A stretch of DNA of 63,625 bases, the filler included, from Asterionella formosa (lineage: Eukaryota), in the NCBI GenBank assembly GCA_002256025.1. It is 16 parts of 16 records of this genome, joined end to end, with 100 filler letters (N's around TTAATTAATTAA, not from the genome) between each part and the next. Parts side by side here need not be neighbours in the genome. Positions count along the whole stretch, not along the records: positions 1 to 16,338 come from NKIB01004963.1; positions 16,439 to 17,451 come from NKIB01004972.1; positions 17,552 to 33,867 come from NKIB01004973.1; positions 33,968 to 34,980 come from NKIB01004974.1; positions 35,081 to 36,093 come from NKIB01004975.1; positions 36,194 to 37,206 come from NKIB01004976.1; positions 37,307 to 38,319 come from NKIB01004977.1; positions 38,420 to 54,730 come from NKIB01004978.1; 8 more parts are not named here. One strand, given 5' to 3'. Of the stretch, positions 1 to 59,178 are shown in pieces. Position numbers and translations under genes: made by a program. Each line of letters opens with the position of its first letter. The stretch's first letter is position 1. A model generated the notes under the pieces. That model ran no database searches. It saw nothing but the letters and a program-made list of their open reading frames with translations, and was not told the origin of the DNA.

Positions 1-2002
1 AAGGTGTACAGAAGTCAGTCTACTTAAAGTTCCTGCATTTGGGAGGCAGCAGCTACGTCATCGTTGCTGGATTCATGTGTACATACTGTAGAGCATTCAT
101 TTTTTCCTGGTTACAACGTGTACCGTATATGATTTTTGCATGCATAAAATCAAACCATGCATGTCATGCATGTTTCAGAAAACGTACAGACAGCGTAAGC
201 GGGGTGGTACCTGGTACCTGGTGCAGGTACTTTTCTTCTTGTACCGGTCGACGACTAGACTACTGGTACCATGTGTACCTGGTAGCAGATATAGACATGG
301 AGCTGTCGTCCTTGTTGTCAAACAGCTGAAAATTATGCCCCGGTGTCGTCTACGGGAATGTCATGTTATTTAAGGAATTTTGTTTTTCTTTTCTTGACAA
401 ATCTCTTTAGTCGAATATTTCAACTTTTCACAACCCCCCTCCTTTGATGGCGGACCCGCTGAAGTGACCTGGTAGGAGTACCAGGTACCCTAGCTACCTG
501 CCTGGTCTGGTAACTGGTACCATCATAATGGTGACTTGCTTGCTGTTTTGTTGCAACAAATTGATAGTTCCATCATGGTTGCTCTTGCAAATGATAACAA
601 ACAATACAGCTACTGTTATGAATCCAGGAGCAGTAGATGCATTGATCAACACTTTAAAGTCTGTTTTTGTTAATTCAATTTCTATGAACATATAGAGTGA
701 ATAGGTTTTCCTTCTAACAAATGGCTGGAGGCATTGGAAGATCGTTGAATATGGCAGGCTGGACAGTTCATGAAACAGCAGGCTAATTTGCTTCCAAGTG
801 TATCCACTTGCACCTAACAGCCTCCTTCCTATAACGCAATCCCAAATCGCTGCTCCAATCTCCGAACATGATGATGGATAAAAGATACACCCAAGACTCA
901 ATTGCCAAGATGCCCCTATGTGACAATGACATTTTCGAAAGGATCCACCAGATGTACTAACTTTCGTAATAAAGACTTTAAATGGTAATCACTTTAGATT
1001 TGAGGTCTGATGCACACAAACTGCAACCTCTAGGAACAGTTACCAGTTAATGTCATTTTTCAGAAGTCAAAATTGTGCAGTTGGCTACTGAGGAGTAATT
1101 TTCCATTAGCATGATGGAGTAGGAGAGAAACTATTTATTTATCCATATTTATTTATTTATGGCAACTTTTACAATGCTATTGCCCTGTCATCCAAATCCT
1201 ATCCATAATGACAAGTGCTCCATGTGTATTTAGTTGGGCCCCAAAACCTAAGTCAAACAACTTTTTTGAATGGAATTTCTTATCACCTTGAGGTGAAATC
1301 TCCCTTTCAACCGGTTTCCCAATCAGGGTTATCAACCCCTGATGTTAAGTACAATGAAATGCCAGAACATCTACTGTGCCCTGATCCTGAGAATGTTGAC
1401 TGGTATGACATGTGGTGCACTGGAATGCCATGCAGTTCCTATAAGTCAATGACCCAAAGGTAGTCATCACGTTTTGTCTTTGTTAAACATTCATCATGAT
1501 TAGTAAAAATTGAGCATCATAATCCTCTTCCAGGGAACAAACCAACTTCTGGATAGGATAATGCAACTACACAAAGTTCAGTGTCCAGAGCATCCAATGG
1601 CATCTACACTCAACCAACTATGTACCAGTCATGTATAGAAAAGCAAATTCATTTGCTGTGGTCACTTTTAAACTTGTCTAAGACCAGAATTTATCATTTA
1701 TAACTGTGCAAGAAATCACTTTATTCAGTTGAAACTTACTTTCTTTTTAAAATAATTCAGCACAGTCTGGTAAATGTATTTTCCATTCCCATCACCGTCC
1801 ACTCTCGAATGATTCAATTTTTTTCAGATCGTCACTCCATCATCAGTGATTTGTAAGACTAGTAATGGTACTGCGTACATCTCTTTGTTTTTCATAATTC
1901 GAATTATTTCCTTGTGGACTACCAGGTACGGCGGTACAACACGAAAGAGAAAGCAGACAGGTAATCGTTGACTGAAATGTCAGTGTAGAGTACGAATATT
2001 AC

Positions 2003-2383
2003 CTACTTACTTTCAGGACCGGGATTGTTAGAGGATTCCTTTCCGATTAATTCAGTACGACCCTCATCATCAGTCGCATCAAAGTTAAATTTGGACATGA
2101 GAGAATTTATCGACGATTCTTCGAATGTAGAAAGCTCCTTGCTGTCGCCTTCGTCTTCAATATCACCAATTTCAGTGCATTTGTATTGCCAAATGTTTGT
2201 AAAGAACCCAGTTCCGCATAATGCTTCATTCTTGGATTGAAGAGCATTAGCAGGCGCCACGAGTCCAAACGTAGTTGCTTGCGCGAGAAACACTCGCCGA
2301 GACGATGCCGTCGAAAGCAATGCCAAAGAGTTAACAGTAGGCCAAAACCAAAAGTTTAGCACAAGGAAGAATGCCCTACTCAT
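2003..2383 (-). CDS. Small probable thylakoid-lumen protein of unknown function (signal peptide plus twin-arginine/Tat motif)
   Basis: ATG at 2383 gives a hydrophobic N-terminus (MSRAFFLVLNFWFWP), then SRRVFLAQ...APANA (Tat RRxFL motif and AxA cleavage site). The mature part has two Cys (LCGTGFFTNIWQYKC) and an acidic tail. Confidence 0.65.
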   Translation of the reverse strand: MSRAFFLVLNFWFWPTVNSLALLSTASSRRVFLAQATTFGLVAPANALQSKNEALCGTGFFTNIWQYKCTEIGDIEDEGDSKELSTFEESSINSLMSKFNFDATDDEGRTELIGKESSNNPGPESK

Positions 2384-3035
2384 ATTTTCAGATTTGAAAG
2401 GGAGAGGTTGAATCAAACCAAAATATGATAGTATTCCTGGTACCCGGTCTTCCGCTGCCGATGATACAGTCTAATACATTGAAGAAACGAAATATTTCAG
2501 TGTATTCCTCATACCGGTATATCACTTCGCCTTACATTTTTAGACATACAAAATCTCCGGCTTGCTTCTGCATCTTGTTTGCAATGTTCATAGCTAATAT
2601 TTGGTACCAAGCAATACAAATTTGGTAATACAAATAGCGCTAAACTCATCCGCAAATAGACTCCTAGTAGACTAAATATGTACACTACTGCCAAACTGGT
2701 ACATACCGTTCCGGGTACGTTTATTCGTAGTCATTTTTGACAGATTGTTTTTAAGTACCGATACCGGTAGCCTATGTATAGACCTAGAGACGACCTGGTA
2801 CCAAATGTTTGTCTCCGCTACATCCATACCTGTGGTAATGTATTAGTTTGCCATCAGGTATCCCATCTTCAGCTAAGCTCACATTTGGGCCATGGCTGCA
2901 AGAGTAAACTGCTTCAGCACAAGGGACAGGATCATTATGAGGCATAACGCTAAACGACCAACAGAGCTCCTCGATGGCATCAATATAGGACTTGCGCTGA
3001 TTTATTTACTTAAACTGCTACTAGGAGTCCTCAAC

Positions 3036-4179
3036 CTACCAGTTGTTCCAAGGAGTTTGGTCGTCGTGAACCGGATATCCCCATATCTCCATTGCTTCCT
3101 TCAAATCGGCACAAGGAGAGTCTCTTAATTCATCCTCTGCAACAAACTTACCAGTGACGTCCAGGTTATTGTAAAAGTGAACTTGGATTGACTTATACAA
3201 TCCCTCCTTCGCTCTGGGGTCGTTCTCAATTAATTCAATCGCCTCATCTCTATCAATCGCGTTATACATAACAAGATCGCCAACTGCCAAACTCGATGGA
3301 TCATCCTTGAATTGCGTCGGTAGATGAAGACTTCCGGCACAAATGACTCTTTCAGTTCTGATCAGGTACTCTAAATGCTCCTTGTAAGTCTCGTCTCTCA
3401 AGGTGCCGGTTCCCTCCTCAGCTTCGTGATCCAAAGCTAACGCCATGCAAGGTGTGCCAAAGCGTCCATCATCTTGACGAAGTGAATAATCTCGGTAATG
3501 ACGCCAACGGTATAAGGGGATCTCCGAGATGTCTCCACCTGTGAACCATTGAATCAAGGGCTCATTCTTCATAAAGTCTTGAACATATTCCAACTTGGCC
3601 GATTCCAAACAAATGATCTGACCAATGACACGACGTACATCCGAAGATAAACTAGTAACAAAAAGGGTTAGTGACTTGAAAGTGCCATTATCTCCAGGTG
3701 CATTCATGGCACGAGCTAACTTACAGTTGACGCGACCAAACGACATCAACCATGGAATCAACATTGAACGTTTCGTTGTAAAGGTTCGCCTTACGGCACG
3801 CCATGACATGTGGCTCAGTGTGTTTGATGCGAGCATCGTGGAGCTCCTCGGGGCTCCTGTCCTCGGTGTCCAACAAACGATCCCAAAGGATGGCGACGAA
3901 TCGATTTCCAGAGTTCTTGCTCATAGGAACTGGCTTTAATTCTTTCGTATTGGTCACTCCTTCCTCATCTAATCTTCCTGGTCTATATGGTTCATCATAC
4001 TCGTCCTCAGCTTCGAAGTCCGAGTCTTTGGAGGAGTAGTCTGACGAATCCACGGAGTACGACGACATGCGGAGAGTGAACGACGGCGCAACGTGTCGTT
4101 GTGGAAGGACCGAAAATGTAAAGGCCACAGTCAAGGGGAAACACACTGACAGGACAATCAGAAGAAACTGGCAGTTCAT
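3036..4179 (-). CDS. Plastid-targeted protein with YciI-like (dimeric alpha-beta barrel) domain(s); 2 exons (4179-3725, 3651-3036)
   Basis: Two overlapping ORFs are joined in frame by a 73-nt GT-AG intron (3724-3652) with a CTAAC branch site. Signal peptide ends VA-F. C-terminal YciI pattern: LALDH...LRDETYKEHLEYL...AGSL...GDLVMYNA...EAIELIENDP...GLY. Confidence 0.75.
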
Positions 4180-6098
4180 GGTGCTATGCAACTCTGTCTA
4201 GTTAACCCGAGATGGATGCGGGTATCACGGCACTGCAAGGATGATCAAGTTATTTCCTAGTCCAACGCAACGGAACCAACCGATTGAGAGCATCAAGAGA
4301 AGAATAAACCCATGTTGATGCATGATGGTTATGGCTGAATGTAACGGTATGTACCGGTAGGATATACACGCATTACGTAAAATGGCCATGTACGGTATCC
4401 CTGCTACCGGTATTGGATTCTTCTACCGGTAATCATATTTTCACGGAATGGGCAGAATAAGCAAGCAAATATCAACTTCCTCCCTGCCTGTAGAAATAGA
4501 GGTGTCTTGCTATAAGTACCTCCTGGGACTCACCTCCTCGAATTGCAGCCACTCATTTTCACAGTACATATGCCTTCTCGCTACCAGTAGGTACCAGGTA
4601 GCGGTATCCGATTATAGGACCACTGTACCTGGTACCACCGTTAAACAACATACGTTAGCAGATGGAGAATGCATGGTGCATCATGTCATCACTGCCTTGA
4701 TCATGATGAAAATATCAAATACTCAAAGTATCTCAATGAGAAATGAGAACGACGCTTTATTCTTAGGTGAATATGTTAAGCACAATATAGAGAATACAAT
4801 GATAAAAGAATTATTGTAATAACAGTAATATTGACAACGAAATGCACATCTTTTAAATGAAATTTATAGATTCACAATTCAAAGCGACGATCCTATCAGC
4901 AGATTTGACACTTTCACAGTAGCTGTACAAAGACAACTAAAACAATAAAATGATTAATTAAAGCAACAAATAGATGTCAAACAAGTTATTTATTGGCTTA
5001 GATATGATTCCTTGTATCAATGCTGCAAAATTTGCAGTGTACTAACATGTGAATGATGGAAGAATGATGGTGATGAGATTGTTTCACAAAATTTTGCTTA
5101 CCTGTATAAGTACCAGTATGTTTACCATGTATTATCTTCATTATGTAGTCAACAGTCGATATACCCCCCAGTAGCCTGGTAACTTGAGTATGTACTGTAC
5201 ATTCATTGTTTAAAATAGGTATATCAGGTCATTGGTATGATGATGCTGGCAGTTACAAATTTCCAATCCCAAAGACATTGAAACTGTGAATTAAGACAGG
5301 TGGTTTTCATCACTTCAACCAGAAAAGGAGAATAATTTTGAGTTTGCAGAGAATAAAGCAAAGTAAGCAAGACTTGCTTACTTTTGCTTTGAGCTGCCCC
5401 TCTAGTATTGCCCTGGCTATTGTTGTGTTTTGCTATTTCCTTGTTTTGAAGAATAAAATTAGCATTGAACCTATGCCACTAAGTGGTGACCATCCACAGA
5501 CAATTTTAAAGAGTAAATAGATACTGTTTTCTTTGTACTTAAAAATACATGTCCTGCATCACTTTATCAATTTCAGCAAAATGACTGCAACTTGCAGCAC
5601 CATGCATGCAAGAATAAAAAGTTGATAAAGTGGTAGACCAGGGAGGTGAGGACTGGTGCCTGGTGGTAACTGTACCAGGTACCAGTACCCTGTACCACCT
5701 TTCTACCATGGTAGTACCTCGTACCAGATACAAGTCGCGGTAAAAGACGGTTAAGACTGTGAGGAAAAAAATAGCTAAACTTCTGTTCCTGCAGCGTGGC
5801 AGTTAGTCCTGTTACCACGGTAGGACCATACCTGTTTATCTTCTGTCCACAATATCGATGGAAAGGCAGGGTTGTTAATTAACTTAAAATCAATCATCGA
5901 GTTTTCAAGTAAATCCACGCCACGATTGAAAGCTCCAAATGTGTAACGCAACATGTCAATCAAAAATCAGCACGGATCGCCGAACCGATCCCATGAAATC
6001 TCATCTAATTTACCAGAGAATTATTCATTTCTCGCTCACAAATAATAAGTCAGAAGAAGACCAACACTCAACTTAAAATCCCAACCTTACAAGACACG

Positions 6099-6482
6099 AT
6101 GAAGATCAACACCAAGACTGTGACACCGATCAAAACCTGCCCCACCAGCAAGATCGCTGACAACAAGGACCTTCCGACTGCGCCAACTGAACAAGGTTCG
6201 CTCGGCAGAGTCCTAACTTTTATTCCAATGATGATATGGACTCCAGTGCTCTCATCCAAACGCACTGAGGTGTCTACCCCGGCTTCTCCCCGACTAACGG
6301 GGGACGAAATGAAAGAAGTTTGCGTCCGGCTCTCAGAGCTATTTATTTCCAAAACGACGGACAAGAAGGATCAACCAGCCGAAGATCGTAAACCTGAGCT
6401 TGGTCGATTCAAGACCACCATTATGGATCCCAAGACCAACCAGGCAGTCCCTGTTCTTCGCAGTGTCCGCGTGCAAGCTTAA
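6099..6482 (+). CDS. Hypothetical small protein (127 aa)
   Basis: ATG-initiated ORF with coding-like composition, convergent with the neighbouring gene. No recognisable domain. Confidence 0.5.
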   Translation: MKINTKTVTPIKTCPTSKIADNKDLPTAPTEQGSLGRVLTFIPMMIWTPVLSSKRTEVSTPASPRLTGDEMKEVCVRLSELFISKTTDKKDQPAEDRKPELGRFKTTIMDPKTNQAVPVLRSVRVQA

Positions 6483-6594
6483 ATTGACAATAATAGCCAC
6501 GTCACCAGTTAGGAAAGCGACCGAGAGGTCGCTATAGTATGTAACTAATAGAAATAATCGCCGTTTTCAATCCCCTTCATGTGTTTCATTCTAT

Positions 6595-7644
6595 TCAATC
6601 TCTGTTCTTTCGTAAGAATACATGATATCGCTGTTTGAAGATAGTGTCGTTTTCCATCGTTAACGAGGTCGGGTCTACGTCCCACCCATACCTATCAATA
6701 GCAGGTTTCCACCAATGAGGATGCACTCCACCCCAATCAAAGTACGCATTGCAAAGCGGCAGGCTAACTTGTTCCACAATGATAGCTTTCCCGGGCTTGG
6801 CAATGCGCACCATCTCAGCAACCCATTTTCCATAAAAGTCGTTTTGTATCCCTTGAGCCATCTCTGATAGCTTCTTGCTCTGCCAATCCTCCGCTTCACA
6901 GAGCTCGGCATATTTTTTATCGTTGGCTTCTGATGTAAGATTAAAGTGAAGAGGATCTATAATGGGGAAAATGTAACCTGTGTACACCAAGTCAAACGCA
7001 TTTGATGGTACAAAGAATAGATGGGTCGAATCTCCGACACAGATCTTGCCCTTTTTAGCATTGTTGGGAGCGACGTGATCAAACAAAAGATTCGCTCTAT
7101 CGGCAGAAACTTTCAGATATTCATTCCCGTAGACATAAAGTGTATCAATATTCTTCACTTCTTTGAGAATCTCCAGCGTCATGAAAATGTTAAGACCGAT
7201 GCCGCAAGCACTTTCATAGATGGAATCTCCCTCGTTAATTTCCGGAGCAAACATATTGCTCTTCCAGTGATACATCCCTGCCTTTACTTGCTCATAAGAG
7301 TGTCCCCAGTTATCAAAAACCTCGGTTCTGAAGGTCTCGAGAAAATGAGTCAAGTTGTTGGTGATCGCGATGGGCTTTGTTGCTTGCTCATATGCTGTGG
7401 TAAAGATTTCTGAATCGTAGTTATCGGCGACTCCAATACCTAGAGGGCATTCAAATGGGACAATAATTGATGTCGAGGAACCCAATGGGATGAATATATA
7501 TATAGCTGCGGCTATCAAGGTGGTTCCAATGATCAATATGGCCCATCGAAAATCGGGCTCGTTCCTGCTGTTCTCTGATTGATCCCCAATTTCCATCTTT
7601 TCCATCTTTCCAACAAAAAAACCGGCATCGCTATCCGGAATCAT
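6595..7644 (-). CDS. Membrane-anchored class I SAM-dependent methyltransferase
   Basis: N-terminal TM segment (WAILIIGTTLIAAAIYIFIPL), motif I IYESACGIG, GDSTHLFFVPSNAFDLVYTG and EMVRIAKPGKAIIVE. Confidence 0.75.
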   Translation of the reverse strand: MIPDSDAGFFVGKMEKMEIGDQSENSRNEPDFRWAILIIGTTLIAAAIYIFIPLGSSTSIIVPFECPLGIGVADNYDSEIFTTAYEQATKPIAITNNLTHFLETFRTEVFDNWGHSYEQVKAGMYHWKSNMFAPEINEGDSIYESACGIGLNIFMTLEILKEVKNIDTLYVYGNEYLKVSADRANLLFDHVAPNNAKKGKICVGDSTHLFFVPSNAFDLVYTGYIFPIIDPLHFNLTSEANDKKYAELCEAEDWQSKKLSEMAQGIQNDFYGKWVAEMVRIAKPGKAIIVEQVSLPLCNAYFDWGGVHPHWWKPAIDRYGWDVDPTSLTMENDTIFKQRYHVFLRKNRD

Positions 7645-10414: not shown

Positions 10415-12709
10415 GGCAATTCAAGATATCAATGTGCTTGTTATGGAGAAGTCAATGCCCAATGCTTGTTCCTTACAAGAATTGGAATGTATTATGCAAG
10501 GAGCAATGCTAGAAAGAATAATAACTTTCGCTAGTTGATGCGTTTCAGCTGGGATTACAACTGTTCTGTTGAAATCGCACTGAGCATCACTGGCCGCTGT
10601 GTGTTGAACTTCGTTCTGACAAGAGCACATAGCATATCCTCGTAGACTTTGGTGTAGCTAGAGAAGGCACTGACACCATAGTTCTCTGTGAGTATAAATG
10701 TATGTAATGGTTGGTACCTGGTACTACGTACCGCATTTATGCCCATTCTTGTTTCCATCGTTCCACCTCTCGTCCTACAAAAGACCCAGTCCCCGTAAAA
10801 AGACCCAGTGCCGGAACTCGGCGGTCGAATCCCCTTCGCAATCTCGTGAAATTACATTTTTCAGAAGGGTATTTAGGGAATGTTAACTTGGACAAGGAAT
10901 ATATTATATTTTCGCGGGTTTTAGTTGTGGAAAACGTCAACGCCGGCCCAATACTGGTTACACAAGTTATTACTTGTTGGTCCTTTGCATACCAGCAGGG
11001 AAGACAATACCACACGTGATCGGCTTGTTTTAGGGGATCAACTTTTATGTGTGAGGTGCGTTGAACGCCGACCGGGTAGCGCAATAAATATTTCCTTTCG
11101 TCCATCGTGTCACGCTTTTTCTGATGATTCGCAAAAAAGCAAGCATGACAACGAAAAGCAATCGCTATATGTACGGTCGTGAGACAAGAAAAGCTGACAC
11201 TGACGCTCGTATCATACCTTGCCAGCGTTACTGAGGAAGCCTTAGTCTAGAAATTTTACTTATGATGTACCCCGGAGTACTGACGGCCGGTAATAGGATA
11301 GCAGTAAGTACTGGTAACCGGGTACCCCACATCAATTAAAAACTGTAAGGAACTGCTATTTTACTCCATCTTCCGACTAAAAATATTTATGTAATAATAC
11401 AATGATGAAAACTTGATGCAAGTACAAACTGCATGTTAGAAGATGCTCTCTGCTAGGAATTCTAATACTAGGTGTGCATTTTCAGTCATAGTTAAATTTA
11501 CTGTCTTAGTTTAAATTTATTTAAGATTATTCATCATCACTAACTTCATTGTTATCATCATAATTTCAACTTTGCAACATTGAACTTTCCAGGTTACAAA
11601 CCTGACACATTTATTTTTCCTAGTACTAAGCCTGCCTACATTGGCAGTCTGTAGTGCTGCTGCTGACACCTTGCTTCCCCATTCACCATGTCCATTTTGG
11701 ACACTGCCACTCCCTTCACCGACTCCTCATCCACTCTTATTCACACTCAACTTGCTCTGCTAGACTTTCTGGTCTTTCCACAACAAAAATCAGCCAAATC
11801 GGCACTTGACATATTGATAAAATGCATTTTGCCTACTTTACGCACTTCTCACAGTGCTTTGTTTTTCAAAAAAGGCCTATTCCTCTTCCCAAGACCTTGC
11901 TTGCTGTCTCCCTCTCTACCACTTCCAATTCTCCCATATTCATCTGGAATATCTGGAAATTTCAAGAAACTGTTCTCTATTGCTGTTGCCCACATTCTCT
12001 GCCATCAGGTACCAAGGCAGGAACTTCACTTTCCCCTGATCCCTCCATTGTATTGGCAACCCAAGAGTCGCCTCTCTCAATATTTTGCGATTCGTCTGTA
12101 TGTATCACCAGTGTACATAGAGGAATGAGTACCGGTACCAGGTACCTGGTACATAGTATAGTACGTACTATAATCATGCAAATCGAATCAATTGCTCCGC
12201 TTTTGTCACGTACCTATAAAAACTAAAATACCGGTACCAGTATGAAATTCCCCGCAAATGTCGTTTATGCTTCGCCCATTCCATAGATGTATTTATGTGT
12301 ACCAGGTACCGTTGTTTGCATGGCTGCTCGACTTGTGTACCTGGTACCCTGGTACCAGTACCGGAACATATGTACTATTATATTACTCCGTTCTGCGGAG
12401 TTTTATGACCATCCATTTTCTCGCGTCACAAAAGGAATCATTACTTTATACCGTTTATACTGGCACCCAGCATCAATGTACCGATCGGTAAGCTGCACCT
12501 GTACCTGGTACCTGGTACTCCAGTACTTTGGTACCAGGTAGACCAGCAGCAGCAAAATAAATATGATAGGAATTGTCAACAACCCGCCGGCCATCGCGTA
12601 GATCATTCAACAACACATCAATCTTCGGTTTTTGTTCTTTAACAAAACGTTCTGGCCCATCACACATCAACCACCAACTCGGAACGTGCGTCAGAAAGTC
12701 TACTGTATC

Positions 12710-16515: not shown

Positions 16516-18479
16516 GATTGTGATTTGAGAATTTGATTTGGATGGCAAAACAAGAGCGTGAGTTAGATTTTATGGGAGCTTTCTTGTTGTTGAATGTATG
16601 TAGGCGTGATGGCAGTTTCTCCATGATTCTGATGGCTCCTCAATGGGTCATTCTTGTGTACGAACCTAACTCACATCACTTTCGAGTATGTTGCCCTGCC
16701 CTCAACCGTGTAGGTTACTTTCAAGACTGGCCTTTCTCACGACTACCGGGTACTTGCTTAAACAACGCACTGGAGCAACAAAACCGTCGAAGTCATACAT
16801 GATTGCTTATTAGAAGCTGTCAAAGGAGTTGCTCCCCCGTGACTCAGCATGCCAGCGCATTTCCTGTCAACTCCGACCTCCGTTGAACGTCAGATTTCCA
16901 TTCGTAGTATGTACTGTAGCAAAGACAGAAACAAGCAGTAGTGTAACAACGGGCGATAGGTCCACCTAATATGTATAACAAATGTGAATACATAAACACT
17001 TGTGGATATGCATTATACTGTTGGCTCTGTGACTCCTACATACATACGGATATACCGGTAATTATTTTGCTTTTAGCGAAGAATAAGGCAGTGAATTATT
17101 TACCGGTACGAGGTAGTCGTACTAAACACTTTTTGAAAATGTGTAGTATACGTACATAGGTTATCCCTCAAGTATATACCCGGTAGGCAACATAGAGTGA
17201 AGGCTACGAAGAGGATTTACCGATACCGGGTATGTAGTAGCCTTTCAAATTGGGTTTTTGCAATATCGTGACGATGATAAATAAGTGTCACTTCACGGTG
17301 TCATGTTAACATACTATCAACTGCAATGTCGCGGCCGTGCGATGGTTGGTGATTGGGATTCAGCACATCACGAGAACGGGCGTCAAGTGATGAAGAAATG
17401 AATTAGACCTCGACTAGGCTGGTAACGCGAAAGATTTTTCTCGTTTCAAAANNNNNNNNNNNNNNNNNNNNNNNNNNNNNNNNNNNNNNNNNNNNTTAAT
17501 TAATTAANNNNNNNNNNNNNNNNNNNNNNNNNNNNNNNNNNNNNNNNNNNNGGAAAACGAGGTAATATTTTCTAACCGTTTACCATTAAAAAGTATATAT
17601 ACATGATGAAAAATATATGAATGGCTTAAGACCACTAAAATGCAAAATGAACGACTTAAAAAGTTGGATATCGCAAGAAATATCCTTCCAATTGTTAAAA
17701 TGATTCATTTATCTAGTACTTGCATGCATTAGTTGACCTCTGCTCAAAGGGTTTTAAATGGGGTCGGCTGAACATTTTTCTAATTTTAGTCCAGAAACGG
17801 GGTAATATAGTGGTCTTAAGCAGTTTTTGACTGGTAGTCTACAGTAAAGGCGGAGCCCTCTGGACCACCTGCAAATTGCGGTAAATTTGCCCTCATGCGG
17901 ATTTGGACATTGAGGATATTCACACCTGCCAACCCAATGCTTAAATAATTATGCCGGCCAGCTTGGACATTGGATATCTTTCATTCGTGGCATGATTGTT
18001 TTGAGTACCAGTGCTGGTACCCCTCTGGAACTAGATTACCGGTATTGGTAGGTTGTCTGGAGCTATTTAAGGGTGGAATTGATTCTCCCAATTTCAAACC
18101 CCCAATCCAAAACTCCCCAAATGCAAAAGCACCTCAACCGAAATCATACTGGGGAATTTTACGACCGCAACTTCGACAGGTAGTATGCACCCCATACCTT
18201 GTATTATACCAGGTACCAGGGTACCAGGTACCAGTACCAGATCATCCGCCATGATCGTGGAAAACCATCATCGCGACTGCGTCATCGTCCGCCATCGTTT
18301 GCGCTGTCATAGACATCCAGTAGATTAGTTGACGACATACGTACCTAAATTTATAACCTTGTGTATCGAGTGATGCTGATGGACTCAAAACCAACACGAA
18401 GTATTTGTCAATAGCTGTTGACTTCACGGTCCAGCAGAAGCATAACTTATTCTAGTGACTCAATACGTTCTTTCCGGCC

Positions 18480-22883: not shown

Positions 22884-23346
22884 GTTTGCTTCGTATTAGG
22901 GGTATTACCAGTCGTAGTGACTCGCGTACAAACATGCAAGTAGCCAACCATGGTGGTACCTGGTAACTGTACCTAGTAGGAGTAGATACCAGGTACCTGG
23001 TGCCACTGGTACATTCCGGTAGACCAGGTACCAGATACCAGTGCAAGCTACCTGGTACATATATTTTCGTACATTGCTATGTATCCATTGTAGACTACCT
23101 GTACATAATAGACTCTATGGACAATGTAGTATGGTAAGTACCAGGTACCAGGTACCCGTTCAGGTAAGAAATACCGCGGGTATCATGAATCATGCAGCAT
23201 CTTCGATCTTCGTGCGGATCAGCATATGGCCATGGGTTCTGGAACTGCGTCGATCAGCCTCGCTTTCCATTTTCCTCCTCTTCTCAGTGGTGAATTATAG
23301 AGCTGCTACATACCTATTGACTCGAAAGCGATCAGCTTAGCTCAGA

Positions 23347-25440: not shown

Positions 25441-26249
25441 TTATGATAATAATCTCGTCTTCGTTGATCAATGTTGACAGAGAGAGGAAACGTGGAAAAT
25501 TATGACAACATGAACTGCATATGTGTACGGTATATTTGTAAAATGAGTTCCAGTACTGTACCAGGTACCGATAGGTAACCAGCGTAATAGTGCCAAAAGT
25601 ACCACTGGCACAGGGTTGCCTGGCGGAAATGTAGGCTGTGCGTAGGCCGTTTCGTTGTGACCTCGCTCCTCCTCGACAATGACACACTGAGATGCATCAA
25701 CATCTCCTATATACCGGTAGTCAATATGGAGTAGGAGTAGGTAGCAGGTACCTGGTACCACCAGGTGATCGACAGGCCGCTTCTTCTGGAAATGCAGACG
25801 TATTAGGTAATAGTAGTAAAGAATGCTATGTAGCATATACAAGTGCGACAAACAAAATAAATATGTGGCAACAACATCCAAGCAGTGAATAGCCGCATGC
25901 CAATCTCGTGTCGAATTCAAAACATTCGAGGTCCAATGAATGTAAATGGAGAATGGCAACAGTTGTTATTACTTGAAGCTAGAAGGATAAATGTTGGAGC
26001 AACCTATTTTCAAAACAAAACAGCTCGTGATGATGGGCAATTATAGACGATAGAGTGATGTCATGTGCACGCTACTCGAGTTCGCAAAAGAGGAAACAGA
26101 GAGGAACGACGCATGCATGCCACACTTCAATGAACTTTTTATCACGAAGGCCCTGCGGTTACGCATTGCGAGGTCTGTATTTTCCCAAAATATTTTTATG
26201 ATTTACCTCAATACACAGTACGTACAAGTGATTGAGGTTGCTGCATTTG

Positions 26250-30870: not shown

Positions 30871-32557
30871 ATGTAAAATATTTGGGTGTTTACTAGCAAC
30901 AGATAAAAACCGAGACGACAGGAGCGTGGTGGAAGACAGAAGCCCGGGATTAAAAACACACCTTCATTCACCATGGAGAACAACGATGACTGTGTTCCTG
31001 ATACTGGTCCGTTCAGAGGCGTTCTGGCTAAATGTTTTTGCTCCGTTGTTCCTCGATGCTTTGTCATTGCTCATGCCATTCATAATTGCCATGAATGTGA
31101 TTTATTTAGGGAACAATATCAATATTCCAGAGGAGGCAAAAAGATCATGAAAATAGGCACAGTTAATGATTCCATGTGGAGAGAACAAGGTAGCTATGGA
31201 AGATGACTCGCTTGATTGGCGTGGAACAAGAAAAATATCTCAGCAATGGACTGTTGTTCGATTTTGGTGATTCGTGAACCAGTAATACGTTCAGGTAGTA
31301 GGACGATGTGGGGGTGGAGTGGAAGTGCTTGCTCTGGTGCAGCATTGGGGTAGATTTGGAAAAGAATGGGTCTGTCCCACCATTCAGTGTTGACATCCAA
31401 CAATTGACCGACATTCCTATTTAAGAACAAACTCTCCTCCATGAAGAGTAGTAGATAAAGCTTCTATAAATATAGAGTTCCTACTGTTGATTAGGGCATT
31501 AGCTGCTTCTTGACTAGCAACAGACAAATCTTCATTAGCTATCATTCTGGAAGAGATTTCTCGTGGTAAACAAACAGTAAGCCATTTACATGGTGAATAC
31601 CATAGTAGCAAGTCTGAGGTTCAGAGATCAAAAACAGGGGCCTTGAAGCCTACTAAATTAGTCGACTATCAGATAAAATTGCGAAACTAAAATAAGTGCA
31701 CATCTAAACAAAAAAAGCTACATGACGTGCCCGTAGACAACATATGGGAGCAAAAATCCTATCCGTCACGACAAGTGCTCCATGTGATATGGCTGGTTTG
31801 ATTTTATATTCACGGACAAAATATTCGCAATATTCGAACTTCCCCGGAACTCCCAGAGCTCAAAGTTGCTTTGACGAAATGGTAGTGACACGAACTTCGC
31901 AGAAGGACGCGCGACTAGAATTTATTATGATCATTTTTGGAAAATAAACAGCGAGGTCTGTGCACGATACAGCCGCGACATCAGGAATTTTCCACAATTT
32001 TGAGGAAGCACGGAGTTTCCCGTATCTCCGGGTCAGTACAGTGCTGTATATGGTATTCTTTATTCTTTGGGGAGACGAAACGACCACGACTTTACCCAAG
32101 AACTACGGTACCGGCATATACCGGTAGTCGCACATGCACGTACCCTGTACCGGTGCCAATAAATGGTCCCGAAGAAGAACCCGGATCAACAACATACCGG
32201 GAAAATAAAAAATTAAACTCCCAGTTAAACACGTAGTGGAAGCTAGCGCTAGTAGTTAACTACCTGGTACCAGTAGCACCGTGCACAAGCTAGCGACAAT
32301 GATCATAAGGTCCCTGGTACCGTTGCTGCTTGCTTCATCGTGTCTTTTCCTTCTGCATAATAATATGCATATAGCTCATGGGGGGAATCCTGCCGGTATA
32401 CCAGGTACCAGGTACTGGTACCGGAAATACGACTCTATTCCATTTTATGGGTACCAGTGTTTCCATTGTATACTGTCAACATGCCGGAAATGAAGTGAAC
32501 ACAAGCAATGAATGTAGCTAAATGTAAAATATCATGCATGCTAGTAAATGTAATTAT

Positions 32558-35080: not shown

Positions 35081-35885
35081 GACTCATGCTGCCCAAAATA
35101 GTACAAGGCTGGATCAGGAAAAGATTGGGGATTTCGTTGCCAATGTCAACAATCAAATCGCTACATTCGAATATCCTTCTGGAAGCATTGTAAATTAAAA
35201 TGACACAAACATCAATTTTGACATATTTGGATCAACAACTTTGGTGAACCATGGCGAAAGGACCATCGGGCTTCAAACCACAGCAGGGAATTAGAATTGC
35301 TGCACTGTGCTGTCAGGTGTGAAAATGAGCGGCGAGAAATTGCCACCATTCATTGTATTTACAGGAACAAAGAATGGACTTAGCTATTGCCAGGCAATTG
35401 GGATTAATAGACAATAATAAAAAAATTCTGGTTGGTATTAAATATGCTTGTCAACCCAAAGCTTGGGTTGATACACCAGACATATTCTTATGATGGATCG
35501 AAATAGTTTGGCATCCATTGTTTGCTTTGGAAAAAGGCGGCAAGACTTATCACCTCATCGTGAATTATTTTACTGTCCAAAAGGAAGGACAATGTGTCAA
35601 TACAATTAAAAATTGCGGCACTGAGGTTGATTACATCTTCCCAGGCTACTACACTTCTAGAACAAAATGTTGGATGTAGGAGTTAATGAGCCCTTCAAGG
35701 ACTAGTACATGCGAGGATACTGGGAAGACTACATAGTCGCCAATGTGGATTATGCCAGGGTGCAAAGTCACCACATTGCACGCACAATGGGTAGAAATGG
35801 CATAGGCCAGAGAGTGTCAATTGATACTATCACCAATACCTGCTGGAGGAGCATTGGATTTGACAGCTTTGCTACTGTTACATAG
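35081..35885 (+). pseudogene. Decayed pogo-like (DDE_1) transposase of the Tc1/mariner superfamily
   Basis: Frameshifted remnants TNINFD, SGEKLPPFIVFTG, YACQPKAWVD and LDVGVNEPFK; multiple stops. Confidence 0.75.
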
Positions 35886-36193
35886 TCAGTTAGCTAGTAT
35901 TGGATAGGATCATTCGATAATCTATTTTAAAATTTTATTTTAGTGAAACAATCATTATTCTCAATTAGATTCATAATGGCACACCCTAATCAAATAAATT
36001 AAGTTGAGGACTACAAAATTACTAGACCGAAGTGATTCTAATGTTGAATTCTAATTTCTAATAAGATTATTAATGTGATAATGTAGATTGATTNNNNNNN
36101 NNNNNNNNNNNNNNNNNNNNNNNNNNNNNNNNNNNNNTTAATTAATTAANNNNNNNNNNNNNNNNNNNNNNNNNNNNNNNNNNNNNNNNNNNN

Positions 36194-41226: not shown

Positions 41227-41302
41227 ACGTACGCCAGCATGGTGACGTACAATCCAGTTAAATAAAATAGATAAACACTGTTTTTGAAGTCGTGCTATCT
41301 TC

Positions 41303-47217: not shown

Positions 47218-47698
47218 GGTGGTAAACAGGACATGTATTAGCTACCGGTATCCTGGTTTGTATTTAGCTAAAATGATAGTACATTTGTCTACCGGTACGG
47301 TACTTTCCTTCGTTCACATTCTTAGTCATTTATTACCATTTAGAACTGGAGTTTCATGATTTTATGATTTGACTATATTAGAGCATCGCCACCGCATCGA
47401 CCAAATACCAAAGCCAATTGCAGTTGAAAATATCAATACACGTCACTTGGTCGAGAAATTTTTTATCAATAGTCGAATTTTTCATTTTTTTTTCTCACCG
47501 CATCGACCAAATCCTAGAATAGTCAAATCTCGCGCCGAAACTTTAGCGAATAGAAATAGCACTAGAATGTTGTTACATGTGTATCGTTATATCAATAAAC
47601 CCGATCACTACCAATAAGAAAATGATGGGACTGTGTGGTGTGTGGTGAGTACCAGGGTACCAGGTACCAGGTACTCTAAATATCTGCCTGATGAAATG

Positions 47699-49146
47699 TA
47701 GCAGAGGAATATTGCAGCATACCTCTGATAAAGTCATTCAATGGTGAACATCAACAGTAGTTTGTTGGAAGATACATATGTCCAACACGTATGTATGTGC
47801 CAGTACTTCAATATTTGGATTTATGACAGACAGCGTACTGCTACCTGCAGTATGCTGACACAGTAAGGAATGTAATGAATTTATAGAGCACACATAAGTA
47901 GAAGTAAACAATTGGTAACTGTATTCTCTGTGTCCGGCGGCATATGCTTTTGTCGTGATATGTTCAGCGCTTGTCTATAATTTGCTTACTAGTTTATCAG
48001 ACCTTACTGCTCCTTTCTTGCCTTGGACCCAACATACTTCTGTGAAGGGCTTCGCCATCCTACAGAAGCAAGTGCTGCTGCATACAAATCGTCAACGTGT
48101 TGAAACGTTGCGCGCCATAAGTTTGCTGTTGAAGGCATTTTCTGGCAGACCTTCGCTGCCCATAGTGGCGCTCCAGCGTTGTTGCAGACCGCCACCTGTG
48201 CGTCATGGTTGTTGCCAGCCCTCACTACCCACTTCCGTTGGATACTTGCTCTAATTGGTTATGCCCCCCATCCCATCACACTCTACTCTGTACTAAGTAT
48301 AACAGATGCTCACAACGCCCAAAAGAGCCTAACAAGGGGTTTTCTTCCTTTCTTCGTTGTTCCTTTACTTCCATCTCCCAACAGCCAAGGACTCCGCTTG
48401 CCTCGTCGGCTCAGCACTCACCTTCCCTCTTGGGAGAGGAGGGGGGATATTGAACACTCCTGTCTTACTTCATTAAACTAGCACAACTGAGTGGAAAGAC
48501 AGCAGACAGGGGGGATATAATGCACCACAGAAACACAACAGATATTTCAAAGCCTAAGATGGAAAGGCTGACCTATGATTCTTAAAATGGCAACCCAATC
48601 ACACAGTATTTTACCCCAGACAGTGCCATATCAATGCCAAATGCCAGAGGAACACCAAGCCATTGGATGGAAATGGGAACCATGCACACTCTACTCCGTA
48701 AAATTAATTGATGAGCAATGCATTAGAGTTGGTTGGAGATTATTATTGATGAAAATTATTGCAGCAGCAGATCTGTGCTAATTTGAGACACATGGGAATA
48801 ATCACCTGTTGAGCATAATTGTGGGCCAAGAATTGAATGAAGGGGAGTAGCAGAGGAATATTGCAGCATACCTCTGATAAAGTCATTCAATGGTGAACAT
48901 CAACAGTAGCATGTTGGAAAATACATATGTCCAAAACGTATGTATGTGCCAGAACGTCAAGATATGGATTTATGACAGGCAGCGTAGTACTGCTACCTGC
49001 AGTATGTTGACACAGTAAGGAATGTAATGAATTTATAGAGCACACATAAGTAGTAGAAGTAAACAATTGGTAACTGTATTCTCTGTGTCCACCGGCATAT
49101 GCTTTCGTCGTGATATGTTCAGAGCTTGTTTATATTTTGCTTGCTA
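47699..49146 (+). mobile_element. Complete non-autonomous (internally deleted) copia-type LTR element: LTRs 47699-47991 and 48848-49146, TSD AAATG
   Basis: Direct repeats of 293 and 299 bp with TAGCA...T(G/A)CTA ends; AAATG at 47694-47698 and 49147-49151; PBS-like GTTTATCAG at 47992; PPT AAGGGGAG before the 3' LTR; no long ORF inside. Confidence 0.9.
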
Positions 49147-53762: not shown

Positions 53763-55744
53763 CAAACAACAGAGCAACGAAGCAAACAAGAAGCAAGCAG
53801 CAAAAGCAACAAACATGAAAGACGACAACAGATCGATTTTACATACCTTTTGATGGGAAATGAGCGGAGGGCAATATATAAACCGGTTTATCAAAGAATT
53901 TGCATCAATTTTTGTATGCGTAACAATTTTTTTCTCTTAATTATTAAATGCAAAAGAAAATCTATACTAAGGCCTACGTATCCTACTATATTGATCTTCA
54001 GGTTGCAACCAGCCATAGTATACTATTTTTGCAATATCAAACATATGACTTGTTATCGTATCTATATATACTATTGTACCGGTATGTATCTTAGGGTCGT
54101 TCTTATCATTTTCGATTTGGTATCATTTTTTTTGAAAAAGTATCATGTAACGGCTACTCGATTTAAACCAAAAAATCCATTCTCCACAAAAATAAAAATG
54201 AAATTGTATCACCCAAAAAGTATCACGAAAATTCAACGGTTACGGGCTGGCTACAATCATGTGCATATCCCTCCAGGCTTCCCTCCAGACTATTTCGATA
54301 ATTTTCCATTACTAAAACCATGTAGGATAACTACGCGTATTATGTAGCAGTATGGAATATATAGCTGACATACCTGCTTAATTCTTGATTTGCCATGAGT
54401 CAACACAGACATGCAAGATCCTCTATACACTTCTTCTTACACTTCCGCTTGCCATCATCCCCTTTCAAGTTTACAAGCAATCAGCACCATGTCATCATTG
54501 TCAGTGCACAATGACGAACAAGTGGATCAACATTGGACTGAAGAAGGTGCTGTGAATATCAACGATGGCAATGATGATGATGGTAATGATGTCATCAGTA
54601 ATCAATTTTTTGATAATGAAAACAACCATCAATTCTTTGATTACGATGACCATGATCAATTCTTTATCCTTTGTCATCTGGCTCTGGAGGCTGAAACGAA
54701 AGTTAAAAAGAGGAAGGCGAAATGGGAGCANNNNNNNNNNNNNNNNNNNNNNNNNNNNNNNNNNNNNNNNNNNNTTAATTAATTAANNNNNNNNNNNNNN
54801 NNNNNNNNNNNNNNNNNNNNNNNNNNNNNNGGGATATTCAAGTCCATACAGCACCAAGACACAACTAAAGTGAAATTGTTTCTTTTACTTAGTTTGTACT
54901 CAATTGTATCATATTTGAATTGTTTCATTTGGACAGAAGTCAAGGTGTTTCTACAGATAGAGTACTGATTATCTCTATAATATAGAGAAGACTAGTTGCC
55001 ACTTTGCAGGATTGGTTGTGGACAATTATTGTTTCATGTATTCATGAAATATGTCATGGTCTGGACGAATCATTTCAAAAAGCAAAAGAAGGAGTTTGAG
55101 TGAAAGCTAAACTATCAACCCATTAACTATAAGTCTCTAGATAACTTGTGAACAGTAAATATCTACATGTCTTCCGATAGCATTATTGCAAGGCATACTC
55201 TAGCTTCATCCATACACCGGAACCGGTATGTTGACTCCCAGCAACGATAGACAACATATCGGTAGACTACCTGGTACCAGGTACCGTACGTTATGCTACA
55301 GTTGGTGGTAAAAGATTAGCCATGAGAATTATGTATGACGATGGTGGTGGGAGGAGAGGAAATGATCCGTCAGTCCTTCCATCCCACGCACATCAGTTGT
55401 TCGACACGACCATCCTTGCACAATTTTGTTCCAATACATTTCCTCCACGCTGCCAACCTAGCTAATGGCACATCACCTGGGTGATGTGGTAGAAGTAAAC
55501 TACCAGTATTGCATTACAAAAAGTCCACTCGTTCCTTCCCCCCCTTCTATTTCTTTCTATATAAAACAACTCTCTCTCTATCATTCGTATGTATTCATAC
55601 ATGTTTGTTTTTTAATGTACCGGTAGTGCGCTCCATCTATTTATCGATCCTGCTGTCATTATTTTACAACTCTTGTTACGACCACTAATAATAATAATAA
55701 ACAACATAACTGCAACCATCCACCCATCCATTCATTCATCCTCC

Positions 55745-55942: not shown

Positions 55943-56405
55943 TAGTTGATGTTTCAAATAATTCATTTGACTTTTCGAAATTTCGTTTACGTACGAGTGT
56001 TAATTATGTGGTACTTCACATGCATTAATGCCACTCTTCACGTAAAAAGGTTACTTTTAACGGTTTCATTTGAAGTTTTAACGGTTTCATGTGAAGTTTT
56101 AACTGTTTCATGTGAAGTTTTCACAATGAATTTTGAACGCGAGACTGAATTAGTTGATGTTTCAAATAATTCATTTGAAAGTTCAACTAAGATCCTGCTC
56201 TTGAGGCTAATACATTCGCAACACGCATTTTACTTAATGAAATAGTAAGGATATTTGTGGTGTCTAATGTCATCCATCTGAGATCAAAGTTTTACGGTTG
56301 TACACATCACATGAAGAACTCACACTTACAGGTAAAAAAGCTCCCTATTCCCAGTTTTCATGTTATGTACCGGTAGGTTATTACCGGTACTAGGTAAATG
56401 TACTA
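55943..56405 (+). repeat. Repeat family with a 208-bp unit containing three 21-bp subrepeats plus a shared flank of about 230 bp
   Basis: TTTAACGGTTTCATGTGAAGT subrepeats; unit restarts at 55943 and 56151; whole block matches 58525-59178 in reverse complement. Confidence 0.85.
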
Positions 56406-56414
56406 GGAAGAGTA

Positions 56415-56944
56415 TGCCTCACACCTGTACATTGTTGCACACTGCTGTAAATCACTCAAATGTTACTCAGGAGCCACATTTTGACTATCAGCAGGCAGAA
56501 CTGGTAGTCAATGACTTCGAAAAGTGCCTTCCTTGGGGATTGGATATGTCCCTAGGTGCTGGTGGTTTCTCTATAAATGTCTGGGATGGCGAGTCATTTG
56601 AGTCTAACCTCATTTTTGATCGAAAAGGTACAGGTGAAGCGGAATTCAAGCAACATGCCATGGAACATGTAAACCAACATGCGATGCTTCTTCGCATTCC
56701 CTTCAAGTACATCTTCTTAATGCGAGGTGATACAGTTCATGCAGGTGCGATGGATAATCACCTAAGCAATGGTGCATTGAGACTTCACATGTATTTGTCG
56801 CCTGGTTCCACTCCAGAGCAAAACTCAGTTGCTATTTGCAAAAGATTCGGAAATGCCATTAACACAAAAGCAAATGGTACAGAGCGTATCCCTCCATCAC
56901 TAGTTTCGTTTTTGCTTGATTCCTATGGGGAAAGATGGAAGTAA
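56415..56944 (+). CDS. Fragment of a 2OG/Fe(II) dioxygenase-like (double-stranded beta-helix) protein
   Basis: QEPHFD (HxD) ... MRGDTVHAG (distal His) ... RLHMY (2OG-binding Arg). The true start is unclear because the ORF abuts a repeat. Confidence 0.5.
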
Positions 56945-58524
56945 GAATTTTTTTNNNNNNNNNNNNNNNNNNNNNNNNNNNNNNNNNNNNNNNNNNNNTT
57001 AATTAATTAANNNNNNNNNNNNNNNNNNNNNNNNNNNNNNNNNNNNNNNNNNNNAAATGCTGCAGCAGTTACACTGCCATCATTAACTTCTTTCCTTGAA
57101 TGATTAGATGCACTACCGCAATACATAGTTTCACTATGTATTCCAGGAACTCGATGTTCCTGCATGCAATGTCGACAGTGACCATATGCATTAAAAACAC
57201 GGTTGCTACAATTTCGATTGTGAGACTCAGATGGGGATTTGTTCTTCCTAAATTTGTAGTTGCACAGATAACACCATTGCAATGTGCGCAAAGACATTGC
57301 AAATTGCAAATGATGACCAAGTCAGGATATGAAAAGGATAGAATGAAAATGAATTAATATATAATAATAAATTGAGCGACACTTCGAACATGCTGTGCTG
57401 GAAAATACAGAGTCTTGAAATTATCACTCCACCATAGTAGTAAAAATGGAGGCATACCGCTACATGTAGTACAGGCGGCACTAATAGTAATAGTAGTATA
57501 GAGCAGAATCAATGTTTTCCTATCATCTATGATATGGCTTGCATTGTAGAAGTCTCACACTAACTATAATTATTATGTAACTACTAAGTATGCATTGGAT
57601 TCTATTAGATCCATTCAAAATCAACATCGTCATCAATGTCCCATTGATTAATGCGGTCATTATAATCAATATTCCTTTCAGAAACATTTGGTTGAAGTGA
57701 TTCAACATATTGATGTATATCCTCTTCAATTACGTTGGGAAATGAGAAGTATGAGTGTGGGTAGATGATATTTGCGGTGGGAGTAGCAATTCCACTAGGA
57801 TTCCTTCCATATTCAGATCGATTCTTTTGTTAAAGTCCAGTGTAGATTTCATTATAACAAACGAGTAAATCATCAGTCCATTGATCAGTAAGACCATTTG
57901 AAACTGAACTTTCTTCCCTCACACTTTTTTTAATAAGTGGTTTCCCACCAATGTCGACAAAATCGGTAGAATGACGAATTTCGTTCTCTGAAATTTCATG
58001 GGTATCTGGATTGAAACCCAAATATTTTTGTTGTAATCGGAATTTTCCTTTCAGCACCAAGAAGCANNNNNNNNNNNNNNNNNNNNNNNNNNNNNNNNNN
58101 NNNNNNNNNNTTAATTAATTAANNNNNNNNNNNNNNNNNNNNNNNNNNNNNNNNNNNNNNNNNNNNAGTCGCTACCATTGATGATGTCTGCGATGCTTGA
58201 ATCTGAGATTGAATCATATATTGTTGCCCACACGAGGGGCTGTGTCTGTGATGACCACGAATTGATTTAAAATGACCTTTATCACAGAATTGACATTTGT
58301 CATTGTCGTTATTGTCACACAGATCCATGATATTTACTGTCGTTGCAGTGCTGTGTTGGCGAGAGAAAAATAAGAATAACTGGTAGCTAAAATAATGGAA
58401 CTTGTTCGGCACATATTTGGCAAACAATACTACCTGGTACCATCCTCATCAGTAGACATAATTCCACCAGTGTTGATTTTGAGTAATAATAATCACGTAA
58501 AAAAATTGGGTTGCCTACCACTGG

Positions 58525-59178
58525 CTAGTAGTACATTTACATAGTACCGGTAATAACCTACATAACATGAAAACTGGGAAGAGGGAGCTTTTTTACCGGT
58601 AAGTGTGAGTTCTTCATGTGATGTGTACAACCGTAAAACTTTGATCTCAGATGGATGACATTAGACACCACAAATATCCTTACTATTTCATTAGGTAACA
58701 TGCGTGTAGTGAATGTATTAGCCTCAAGAGCAGGATCTTAGTTGAACTTTCAAATGAATTATTTTGAAACATCAACTAATTCAGTCTCGCGTTCAAAATT
58801 CATTTTGAAAACTCCACATGAAACAGTTAAAACTTCACATGGAACCGTTAAAACTTCACATGAAACCGTTAAAAGAAATCTTTTTACGTGAAGAGTGGCA
58901 TTAATGCATGTGAAGTACCACATAATTAACGCTCGTACGATGACGAAATTTCGAAAAGTCAAATGAATTATTTGAAACATCAACTAATTCAGTCTCGCGT
59001 TCAAAATTCATTGTGAAAACTTCACATGAAACAGTTAAAACTTCACATGAAACCGTTAAAACTTCACATGAAACCGTTAAAAGTAATCTTTTTTACGTGA
59101 AGAGTGGCATTAATGCATGTGAAGTACCACATAATTAACACTCATACGTAGACGAAATTTCGAAAAGTGGCGTATTTC
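58525..59178 (-). repeat. Second copy of the 208-bp/21-bp repeat family (about two units)
   Basis: GAAACATCAACT recurs at 58766 and 58974; reverse complement of 55943-56405. Confidence 0.85.

Follow-up and report, generated by a model that had tools for sequence, protein, structure and literature searches.

TA-bounded words in the non-coding DNA of the diatom Asterionella formosa as probable excision footprints of cut-and-paste transposons

The non-coding DNA of the diatom Asterionella formosa carries many short words bounded by TA on both sides, above all TACCGGTA and TACCWGGTA (W, A or T). We examined these words in a stretch of 63,625 nucleotides from assembly GCA_002256025.1 (hereafter the window), for which a first-pass annotation had proposed stacked transposon excision footprints, and in further sequence of the same genome. 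The motifs are probably the accumulated end-joining scars of TA-duplicating cut-and-paste transposons.

Over-represented words in non-coding DNA

The window consists of 16 unrelated contigs of a 68.4-Mb assembly (15,436 contigs), joined by N44-TTAATTAATTAA-N44 linkers (15 junctions, e.g., 16339-16438). The linkers are assembly joins that raise the counts of TTAATTAA and dominate the output of repeat finders. Its gene content, and the freshwater and lake labels of the public runs in which it occurs, would suit a freshwater diatom. A rough coding mask, taken from the list of open reading frames (ORFs), divides the window into 23,469 coding and 38,656 non-coding bases. TACCGGTA occurs 30 times, TACCAGGTA 19 times, TACCTGGTA 18 times, TACCAGTA nine times and TACTGGTA seven times; by class there are 37 TACCWGGTA sites, 16 TACCAGTA/TACTGGTA sites and three of the TACCAGGGTA type. 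By this rough mask none of the 30 TACCGGTA and none of the 37 TACCWGGTA sites is coding, in agreement with the rarity in exons claimed by the first-pass annotation, and all 13 intervals that it cited contain between 1 and 12 units. Its description of the intergenic DNA as saturated goes too far: the motifs are real, but their units make up 559 of the 38,656 non-coding bases (1.4%).

Compared with an order-2 Markov model of the window non-coding DNA, TACCGGTA is observed 60 times on both strands with 1.6 expected (≈38-fold), and TACCWGGTA 37 times with 0.67 expected (≈55-fold). The two words rank first among the 8-mers and the 9-mers, respectively, so the strong enrichment of CCGG and CCWGG units foreseen by the annotation is found. 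TACCGGTA is again the highest-ranked 8-mer in 200 kb of other contigs, where the strongest competitors in other dinucleotide frames are either simple repeats or shifted versions of these motifs. In a 461-kb sample (the window and 40 stretches of 10 kb from long contigs) the TA-bounded cores CCGG (199 vs 4.4 expected), CCAGG (206 vs 4.5), CCAG (125 vs 19) and CCAGGG (29 vs 0.8) are all over-represented. Genome-wide there are 28,528 sites of TACCGGTA and 1,718 of the reversed-word control, while the counts for TACCAGGTACCAGGTACC and its control are 1,854 and 0. TA-(C/G)-TA, also named as a dense motif, is enriched only weakly, 1.15- to 1.4-fold (125 vs 109 in the window and 1,118 vs 801 in the 461 kb).

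Units gained between repeat copies

We compared 231 records of this genome (953 kb) with themselves and kept indels with clean flanks, which gave 1,048 events after merging. Merging was imperfect and the events are drawn from repeat families, and the frequencies given here hold inside repeats rather than in promoters. Indels in which the short allele has a single TA and the long allele TA-CCGG-TA account for 16 of the 45 six-base indels, and TA+CCWGG+TA accounts for 5 of the 21 seven-base indels (crude binomial p of 4e-35 and 2e-10, respectively, under a site-density null). The commonest TA-anchored class is TA+C/G+TA with 58 of 311 three-base indels, and single events have the cores CAG, CCG, CATGG, CCATGG and CCAGGG. 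Gains of units are also seen inside transposon copies, including the coding parts of dead elements.

Where at least three copies decide which allele is in the minority, the long allele proves the rarer one in 10 of the 12 informative CCGG cases and 3 of the 4 CCWGG cases; for the C/G class, an earlier and smaller catalogue has a single long copy at each listed site. The insertions of CCGGTA and of GTA type at TA, both of which the annotation had predicted, are thus present, the former being mostly derived. For CCWGGTA the predicted TA-anchored indels exist as well, but no matching element was found in the ≈0.95 Mb examined and their footprint origin is not established. Turnover had further been called a major mutational process shaping promoters. 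This stands in a moderate sense, as the C...G and GC scar classes comprise 96 of the 656 merged indels of at least three bases (our own sum), measured in repeats and not in promoters.

The GC scars, TA+GC+TA, form another class. They account for 13 of the 155 four-base indels, their long allele is the rarer one in all nine informative cases, and TAGCTA is enriched 2.3-fold. A putative GC-ended TA element whose 2-nt overhangs are self-complementary would explain them. Many four-base indels away from TA have a duplication of 2-3 bases around a central C or G (CTC-G-CTC, CCA-G-CCA, AGG-C-AGG) and are possibly scars of another DNA-transposon superfamily.

An alternative that involves no transposon is that the arrays are simple repeats, extended by slippage during replication or by copying from a neighbouring unit. 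Such growth would suit the 110 of 206 TACCWGGTA sites in the 461 kb that touch another unit, as well as the three of five CCWGG indels that lie beside an existing unit, and a GTA or CTA gained after a matching triplet is equally a tandem duplication. However, a local template is lacking in 15 of the 16 CCGG events (the 12 bases on either side of the short allele contain no CCGG) and in two of the five CCWGG events. TACCGGTA is solitary at 161 of 199 sites, and the arrays mix CCAGG and CCTGG orientations (the four dimers number 40, 40, 36, and 28), which slippage of a single unit would not do. We consider slippage extremely improbable as the general source: it is contradicted for the solitary CCGG gains, and can stay as a secondary amplifier of CCWGG arrays. 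The stacking of footprints into arrays, as first proposed, accordingly holds mainly for CCWGG and less for CCGG (38 of 199 sites touch another unit), with a contribution that slippage could add.

CCG-ended pogo elements as the source of CCGG

Transposon ends that match the CCGG core are resident in the genome. A genome search for DDE_1 transposases gave 93 matches, and the 33 retrieved for analysis of their ends include two families that start with CCG directly after a TA and one that starts with CAG; three further pogo loci belong to the two CCG families. We take these CCG-terminal pogo elements to be Tc2-like. Full copies are 2.2-2.5 kb long (with copies of 2,460 bp) and have TA at both ends, and two elements have open DDE_1 frames of 421 and 433 aa. 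TA precedes 24 of 26 CCG-type ends. Exact ends of this type number 430 genome-wide (control 21), corresponding to ≈215 elements, so the CCG-ended, TA-flanked elements predicted by the annotation do exist. The pogo transposase remnant that it reported at 35081-35885 is likewise confirmed as a broken DDE_1 remnant related to one of the two families. As the contigs of the window are unrelated and joined by linkers, this remnant cannot be tied to the arrays by its position.

Opposite the transposase, the CCG-ended elements have another conserved frame, ≈145 aa long (L211, 781-1215, plus strand; L216, 2317-2751, minus strand), and similar text is found in L214 and at 30361-30963 in the window.

Excision of a CCG element would leave 3-nt CCG overhangs, whose terminal CG pairs may anneal and be filled in to give TA-CCGG-TA. 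The full-overlap product, similar to that of Sleeping Beauty, would be TACCGTA/TACGGTA, and these words are found 79 times in the 461 kb with 36 expected. The indels between repeat copies and the resident ends together make it very likely that TACCGGTA is an excision footprint of TA-duplicating cut-and-paste transposons. With ≈28,500 scars and ≈215 surviving elements (≈130 scars per element), these elements would hop far more often than they persist.

A second series of scars

The CCWGG units have a stricter context. TACCAGGTA is preceded by G at 72 of 91 sites and followed by C at 74 of 91, while the context of TACCGGTA is loose; considering only CCWGG sides free of neighbouring units, G is found at 191 of 277 in the 461 kb. 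In the same sample the related cores are asymmetric, with CCAG at 125 and CCTG at 37 sites, and CCAGGG at 29 and CCTGGG at 1 (p 6e-8).

TACCWGGTA, TACCAGGGTA and part of TACCAGTA form a second series in the context G-TA-C. The word spectrum predicts as their source a CCAG-ended TA element with a 4-nt stagger. Its CCAG overhangs, joined at overlaps of four, three and two bases, would give CCAG, CCAGG, and CCAGGG, respectively, and every scar of the series would rebuild GTAC on both sides, hence the arrays. On balance we favour the view that TACCWGGTA is the excision footprint of a TA-duplicating transposon, for which this predicted element is the candidate.

TACCAGTA and TACTGGTA are partly products of CpG decay of TACCGGTA. 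The same decay was rejected as a source of TACCWGGTA, since CCCGG has few sites (17 vs 206) and does not share the G..C context (0.35 vs 0.79). A 4-bp GTAC duplication was rejected too, as events in C-TA-C and G-TA-G contexts duplicate only TA.

Three mobile families insert at the arrays

Two MITE (miniature inverted-repeat transposable element) families are abundant at the CCWGG units. Family 1 (88 bp, with longer relatives) has 884 exact ends genome-wide and looks CCAG- or CCTG-ended after a TA. In 33 copies with fixed orientation the flanks are CAG/CAG nine times, CTG/CTG nine times and CAG/CTG once, the rest being degraded. CWG is thus exactly duplicated in 18 of the 33 copies, W follows the site and not the element, and TA is found on both sides in only 13. 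One empty site (L178 compared with several paralogs) has a single CAG and no TA, which means that the element duplicates only CWG. Family 2 has 153 exact ends, and all four retrieved copies have CTG/CTG. The ends start with CAA in family 1 and GAA in family 2, and the flank consensus of the CWG families, GGTAC-CWG-GTACC, equals the motif context. A TA-duplicating, Stowaway-like mode was rejected for these MITEs by the pattern of W, the TA counts and the L178 empty site.

No transposase could be tied to the MITE ends, with only gene-less copies found and no link among the best 30 of 150 DDE_Tnp_4 loci. A very young Harbinger family (many copies >99% identical) was rejected as partner because it has GGG ends and TWA flanks. 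A PIF/Harbinger MITE with GGG-starting ends and TWA flanks (window 26877-27870; L251, L260-L280) derives from the very young Harbinger family, of which there are dozens of near-identical copies and whose DDE_Tnp_4 frame of 425 aa is open.

The third family is mariner-like with CTCCCTC terminal repeats and TA duplication, presumably of the plant type (DD39D). It has 152 protein matches in the genome; its copy in L048 is 2,418 bp long with a broken transposase frame and no Pfam match. TA precedes 25 of 28 ends and the family adjoins CCWGG, with G at position -3 in 22 and at -4 in 23 of the 28 ends. It is unlikely to be the maker of the GTA/CTA scars, as it prefers GG whereas the GTA/CTA gains have no GG context. 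A single CTCCCTC end after a TA, resembling the terminus of this family, is found at 53459 in the window.

The CWG and CTCCCTC families were shown to insert in or beside CCWGG motif arrays, which, once formed, act as landing pads for all three. The relation could also run the other way, with the CWG families making TACCWGGTA by entering a plain TA with CCWG/CWGG ends and leaving by way of the inner CWG repeat; the explanation of TACCGGTA would be unchanged. No other abundant family was found to have CCWG adjoining TA (theirs are 884 and 153 ends), their flank consensus is that of the motif, and L064 is occupied (TA-C-CTG-element-CTT-G-TA) where its paralog L062 has a plain TA. Yet the L178 empty site, the CWG-only duplication and the scarcity of TA on both sides speak for insertion into CWG, and a sloppy exit from CWG should yield CCAGGG and CCCAGG equally, although their counts are 29 and 1. 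As 206 of 286 ACCWGGT words lie inside the motif, availability alone can yield the flank consensus, and the L064/L062 pair fits either two steps (a scar, then an insertion) or one. An origin of the motif from the CWG families is for these reasons unlikely.

Placement upstream of genes

By nearest gene (rough models, no null), 44 of the 70 units are at most 600 bp upstream of a start and four at most 600 bp downstream of an end; 12 are farther off and 10 are on contigs with no modelled gene. This placement, together with the palindromic form, would suit selected promoter elements bound by a dimeric transcription factor, to which transposons are drawn, as proposed for the oomycete motifs TACATGTA and GTACCGGTA. 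ATACCGGTAT and GTACCGGTA are called putative regulatory motifs upstream of oomycete genes in PMC10031896, and the clustering of three mobile families at CCWGG arrays is in line with such a view. However, promoter selection is unexpected where six- and seven-letter gains occur inside transposon copies, including dead coding parts, and copies of a single upstream region do not agree in their number of units. At L129, the closest foreign Vps26 locus (protein identity 94%), units are absent from the ≈245 bases before the inferred start, while the window has two ≈200 bases upstream, albeit this is one case.

A weak test is provided by 80 loci of other organisms (325 kb, many short or transcript-derived), which together have nine units: four TACCGGTA and five TACCWGGTA. 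The latter are all in L099, a metagenome contig of another organism, which (2684-10572) has five TACCAGGTA and ten TAGCTA in 15 kb; a similar process may act in that lineage.

Selected promoter elements are altogether a highly unlikely origin of the motifs. A promoter role is not needed to explain how the units arise, and an origin as scars is compatible with later use as binding sites. The upstream enrichment would most likely come from accessible DNA combined with purging from exons.

Points against a footprint origin

Several observations weigh against reading the motifs as footprints. Among the sequences compared there is no site occupied by a CCG element in one copy and by TACCGGTA in another, and excision itself was not observed. 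The letters beside the pogo ends match those beside the free motifs imperfectly (T before 7 of 26 ends and 45 of 356 free motif sides; Fisher p 0.067), a mild mismatch. The long allele is the majority in 2 of 12 CCGG and 1 of 4 CCWGG cases, the three CCWGG events that adjoin an existing CCWGG could be accounted for by slippage, and the upstream concentration is also expected from promoter function. Finally, rice excisions are mostly messy rather than stereotyped, with deletions or fillers, and perfect in 8 of 94 cases (PMC4423477).

Boundary clustering and inverted-repeat pairing in ≈0.95 Mb, a biased sample of ≈1.4% of the genome, gave no TA-duplicating family with CCA, CCT, or CCAG ends. The CCA/CCT-ended elements that the annotation expected were thus not found there, and the CC(A/T)G-looking MITEs duplicate CWG instead. 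Output of these searches was confined to the CWG families, the CTCCCTC family, the CCG and CAG pogo families and the motif arrays. A pattern search for a CCAG-type family found motif clusters but no family, a DDE_3 search of the genome was empty, and the search for CCAG ends covered 33 of the 93 DDE_1 matches.

Features of the window

The clusters and repeats described above are located as follows.

208..284, unstranded: cluster of TA-CCWGG-TA and TA-CTGG-TA units
4352..4634, unstranded: cluster upstream of a minus-strand gene, with three TACCGGTA, two TACCWGGTA and one TACCAGTA
4657..5597, unstranded: non-autonomous repeat, decayed, with a terminal repeat of the CWG-duplicating family as its right end (5594, minus strand) and with paralogs at 70-79% identity
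8033..8072, unstranded: tandem array CCGG-CCTGG-CCTGG with common TAs, plus one TACTGGTA
12130..12540, unstranded: the densest of the clusters, with 12 units, lying upstream of the gene at 12710
17872..17890, plus strand: degenerate terminal repeat from the CWG-duplicating MITEs, with CTG before it
18207..18236, unstranded: array CCAGG-CCAGGG-CCAGG-CCAG upstream of an adenylate-kinase-like ORF
22957..23154, unstranded: five TACCWGGTA between divergently transcribed genes
25559..25757, unstranded: three units upstream of a minus-strand ORF whose end is at 25440
32119..32420, unstranded: units at the end of a Crypton-like repeat
35081..36093, plus strand: broken remnant of a pogo-type (DDE_1) transposase; over 1,013 bases it shares 80% identity with the 2.46-kb element (L216, L211) that is CCG-ended and TA-flanked
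47650..47673, unstranded: array CCAGGG-CCAGG-CCAGG
48847..49146, plus strand: repeat copy with two additional GTA triplets at TA sites compared with its paralog at 47698-47991
55268..55283, unstranded: tandem CCTGG-CCAGG units
56368..56375, unstranded: TACCGGTA where the paralog at ≈58556-58562 (minus strand) has a plain TA, a footprint polymorphism within the window

A second copy or haplotype of 12130..12540 (L061) has one 8-base TA-bounded unit fewer at ≈12338-12352, so that the two copies of the upstream region 11983-12618 differ by one unit. The array at 18207..18236 brings together all three members of the predicted CCAG-end series. Crypton-like paralogs L011 and L012 each have a private CCGGTA at a TA, and CCGG, CCAG and CTGG interchange between copies of this repeat, which fits CpG decay. 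The Crypton-like repeat itself (window 32206-33867) has a GCR1_C match, tyrosine-recombinase-like motifs by eye and at least eight other copies with 84-96% identity.

The regions 55943-56420 and 58500-59178 belong to a repeat family with internal tandem units of 21 bp and 208 bp, likely the sub-terminal region of an unclassified DNA transposon. The GC-rich contig at 62615-63625 has a sensor-kinase-like frame, looks bacterial by eye and is probably an assembly contaminant. Reads of four public runs compared with 1-15600 gave difference tables dominated by repeats; several single-copy contigs compared with the window gave net differences of 6, 7, and 3 bases (also 5, 9, and 16) whose letters are not visible, and these were not used as evidence.

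Comparison with known systems

Excision of Tc1/mariner elements leaves short 3' overhangs from the element ends, which are end-joined into a footprint between the duplicated TAs (PMC4423477; PMC2874221), with cag/ctg in the case of Sleeping Beauty (PMC5224488). The units described here likewise enclose, within a duplicated TA, bases that match element ends and are gained compared with a single TA. They differ in scale (28,528 copies of one scar), stereotypy and the CCGG core from CCG ends, and in the additional CCAG/CCAGG/CCAGGG series, which needs a 4-nt stagger and an element that is only predicted. In searches of mostly non-subscription literature we found no footprint data for CCG-ended pogo elements. 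The elements resemble other pogo-like DDE_1 transposons in TA duplication, terminal inverted repeats of ≈26-30 bp and lengths of ≈2.3-2.5 kb, whereas the ≈145-aa frame on the opposite strand sets them apart.

Stowaway elements in Triticeae introns have TA...GTA footprints and re-insertion into footprints, at one or two loci (PMC1925063). Such a scar, re-insertion into an earlier footprint and CTCCCTC-like ends (CTCCC) are shared with the alga, where scars occur genome-wide rather than at single loci and GTA/CTA gains have no GG context. Surveys in rice, which infer excision by sequence comparison, argue that it is a major source of variation (PMC4423477; PMC5023962), yet the messy rice excisions do not build over-represented words.

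The CWG MITEs are analogous to NuwaI (PHIS) and Harbinger3_DR, for which a 3-bp duplication of CWG at the centre of a palindromic CCWGG target is described. NuwaI is reported from 16 animal genomes only, with repeats that usually start with GGG and two frames (PMC4482050), and the target of Harbinger3_DR is AAACACCWGGTCTTT (PMC3016246). The MITEs of the alga have CAA/GAA ends instead of GGG, an algal host and gene-less copies. They appear to work like NuwaI, and membership is not claimed.

Abundant TA-bounded palindromes are also found upstream of other stramenopile genes. Oomycete TACATGTA (motif-1) lies upstream of 12,070 genes, and a Phytophthora study rejected a footprint origin because of its abundance and conservation (PMC3520976). 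Of the oomycete motifs TACATGTA and GTACCGGTA/ATACCGGTAT, one has the identical eight letters. These motifs are read as transcription-factor sites in PMC3520976 and PMC10031896, and the likeness is one of published description. The searched literature, mostly without subscription papers or supplements, contained no report of genome-wide footprints as top words in a diatom.

Implications

The process is a known one, seen here on an unusual scale. Footprints generally count as rare curiosities of single loci, while in the DNA sampled here a single scar heads the over-represented non-repetitive 8-mers. With ≈28,500 scars for ≈215 elements, counts of elements would badly understate cut-and-paste activity, and motif finders would report the scar words as promoter signals.

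A wider reading is possible, but speculative. Scars may constitute the dominant vocabulary of the alga's promoters, and a CCAG-ended TA transposase, so far undescribed and cutting with a 4-nt stagger, may regenerate GTAC and build (GTACCWG)n arrays, on which two CWG families and a mariner-like family may have specialised; oomycete TACATGTA and TACCGGTA could then be scars of the same kind. Abundance is in any case no argument against a footprint origin, and the published rejection for oomycete TACATGTA becomes testable by means of indels between repeat copies. In A. formosa itself the scars seem to direct three further transposon families to upstream regions.

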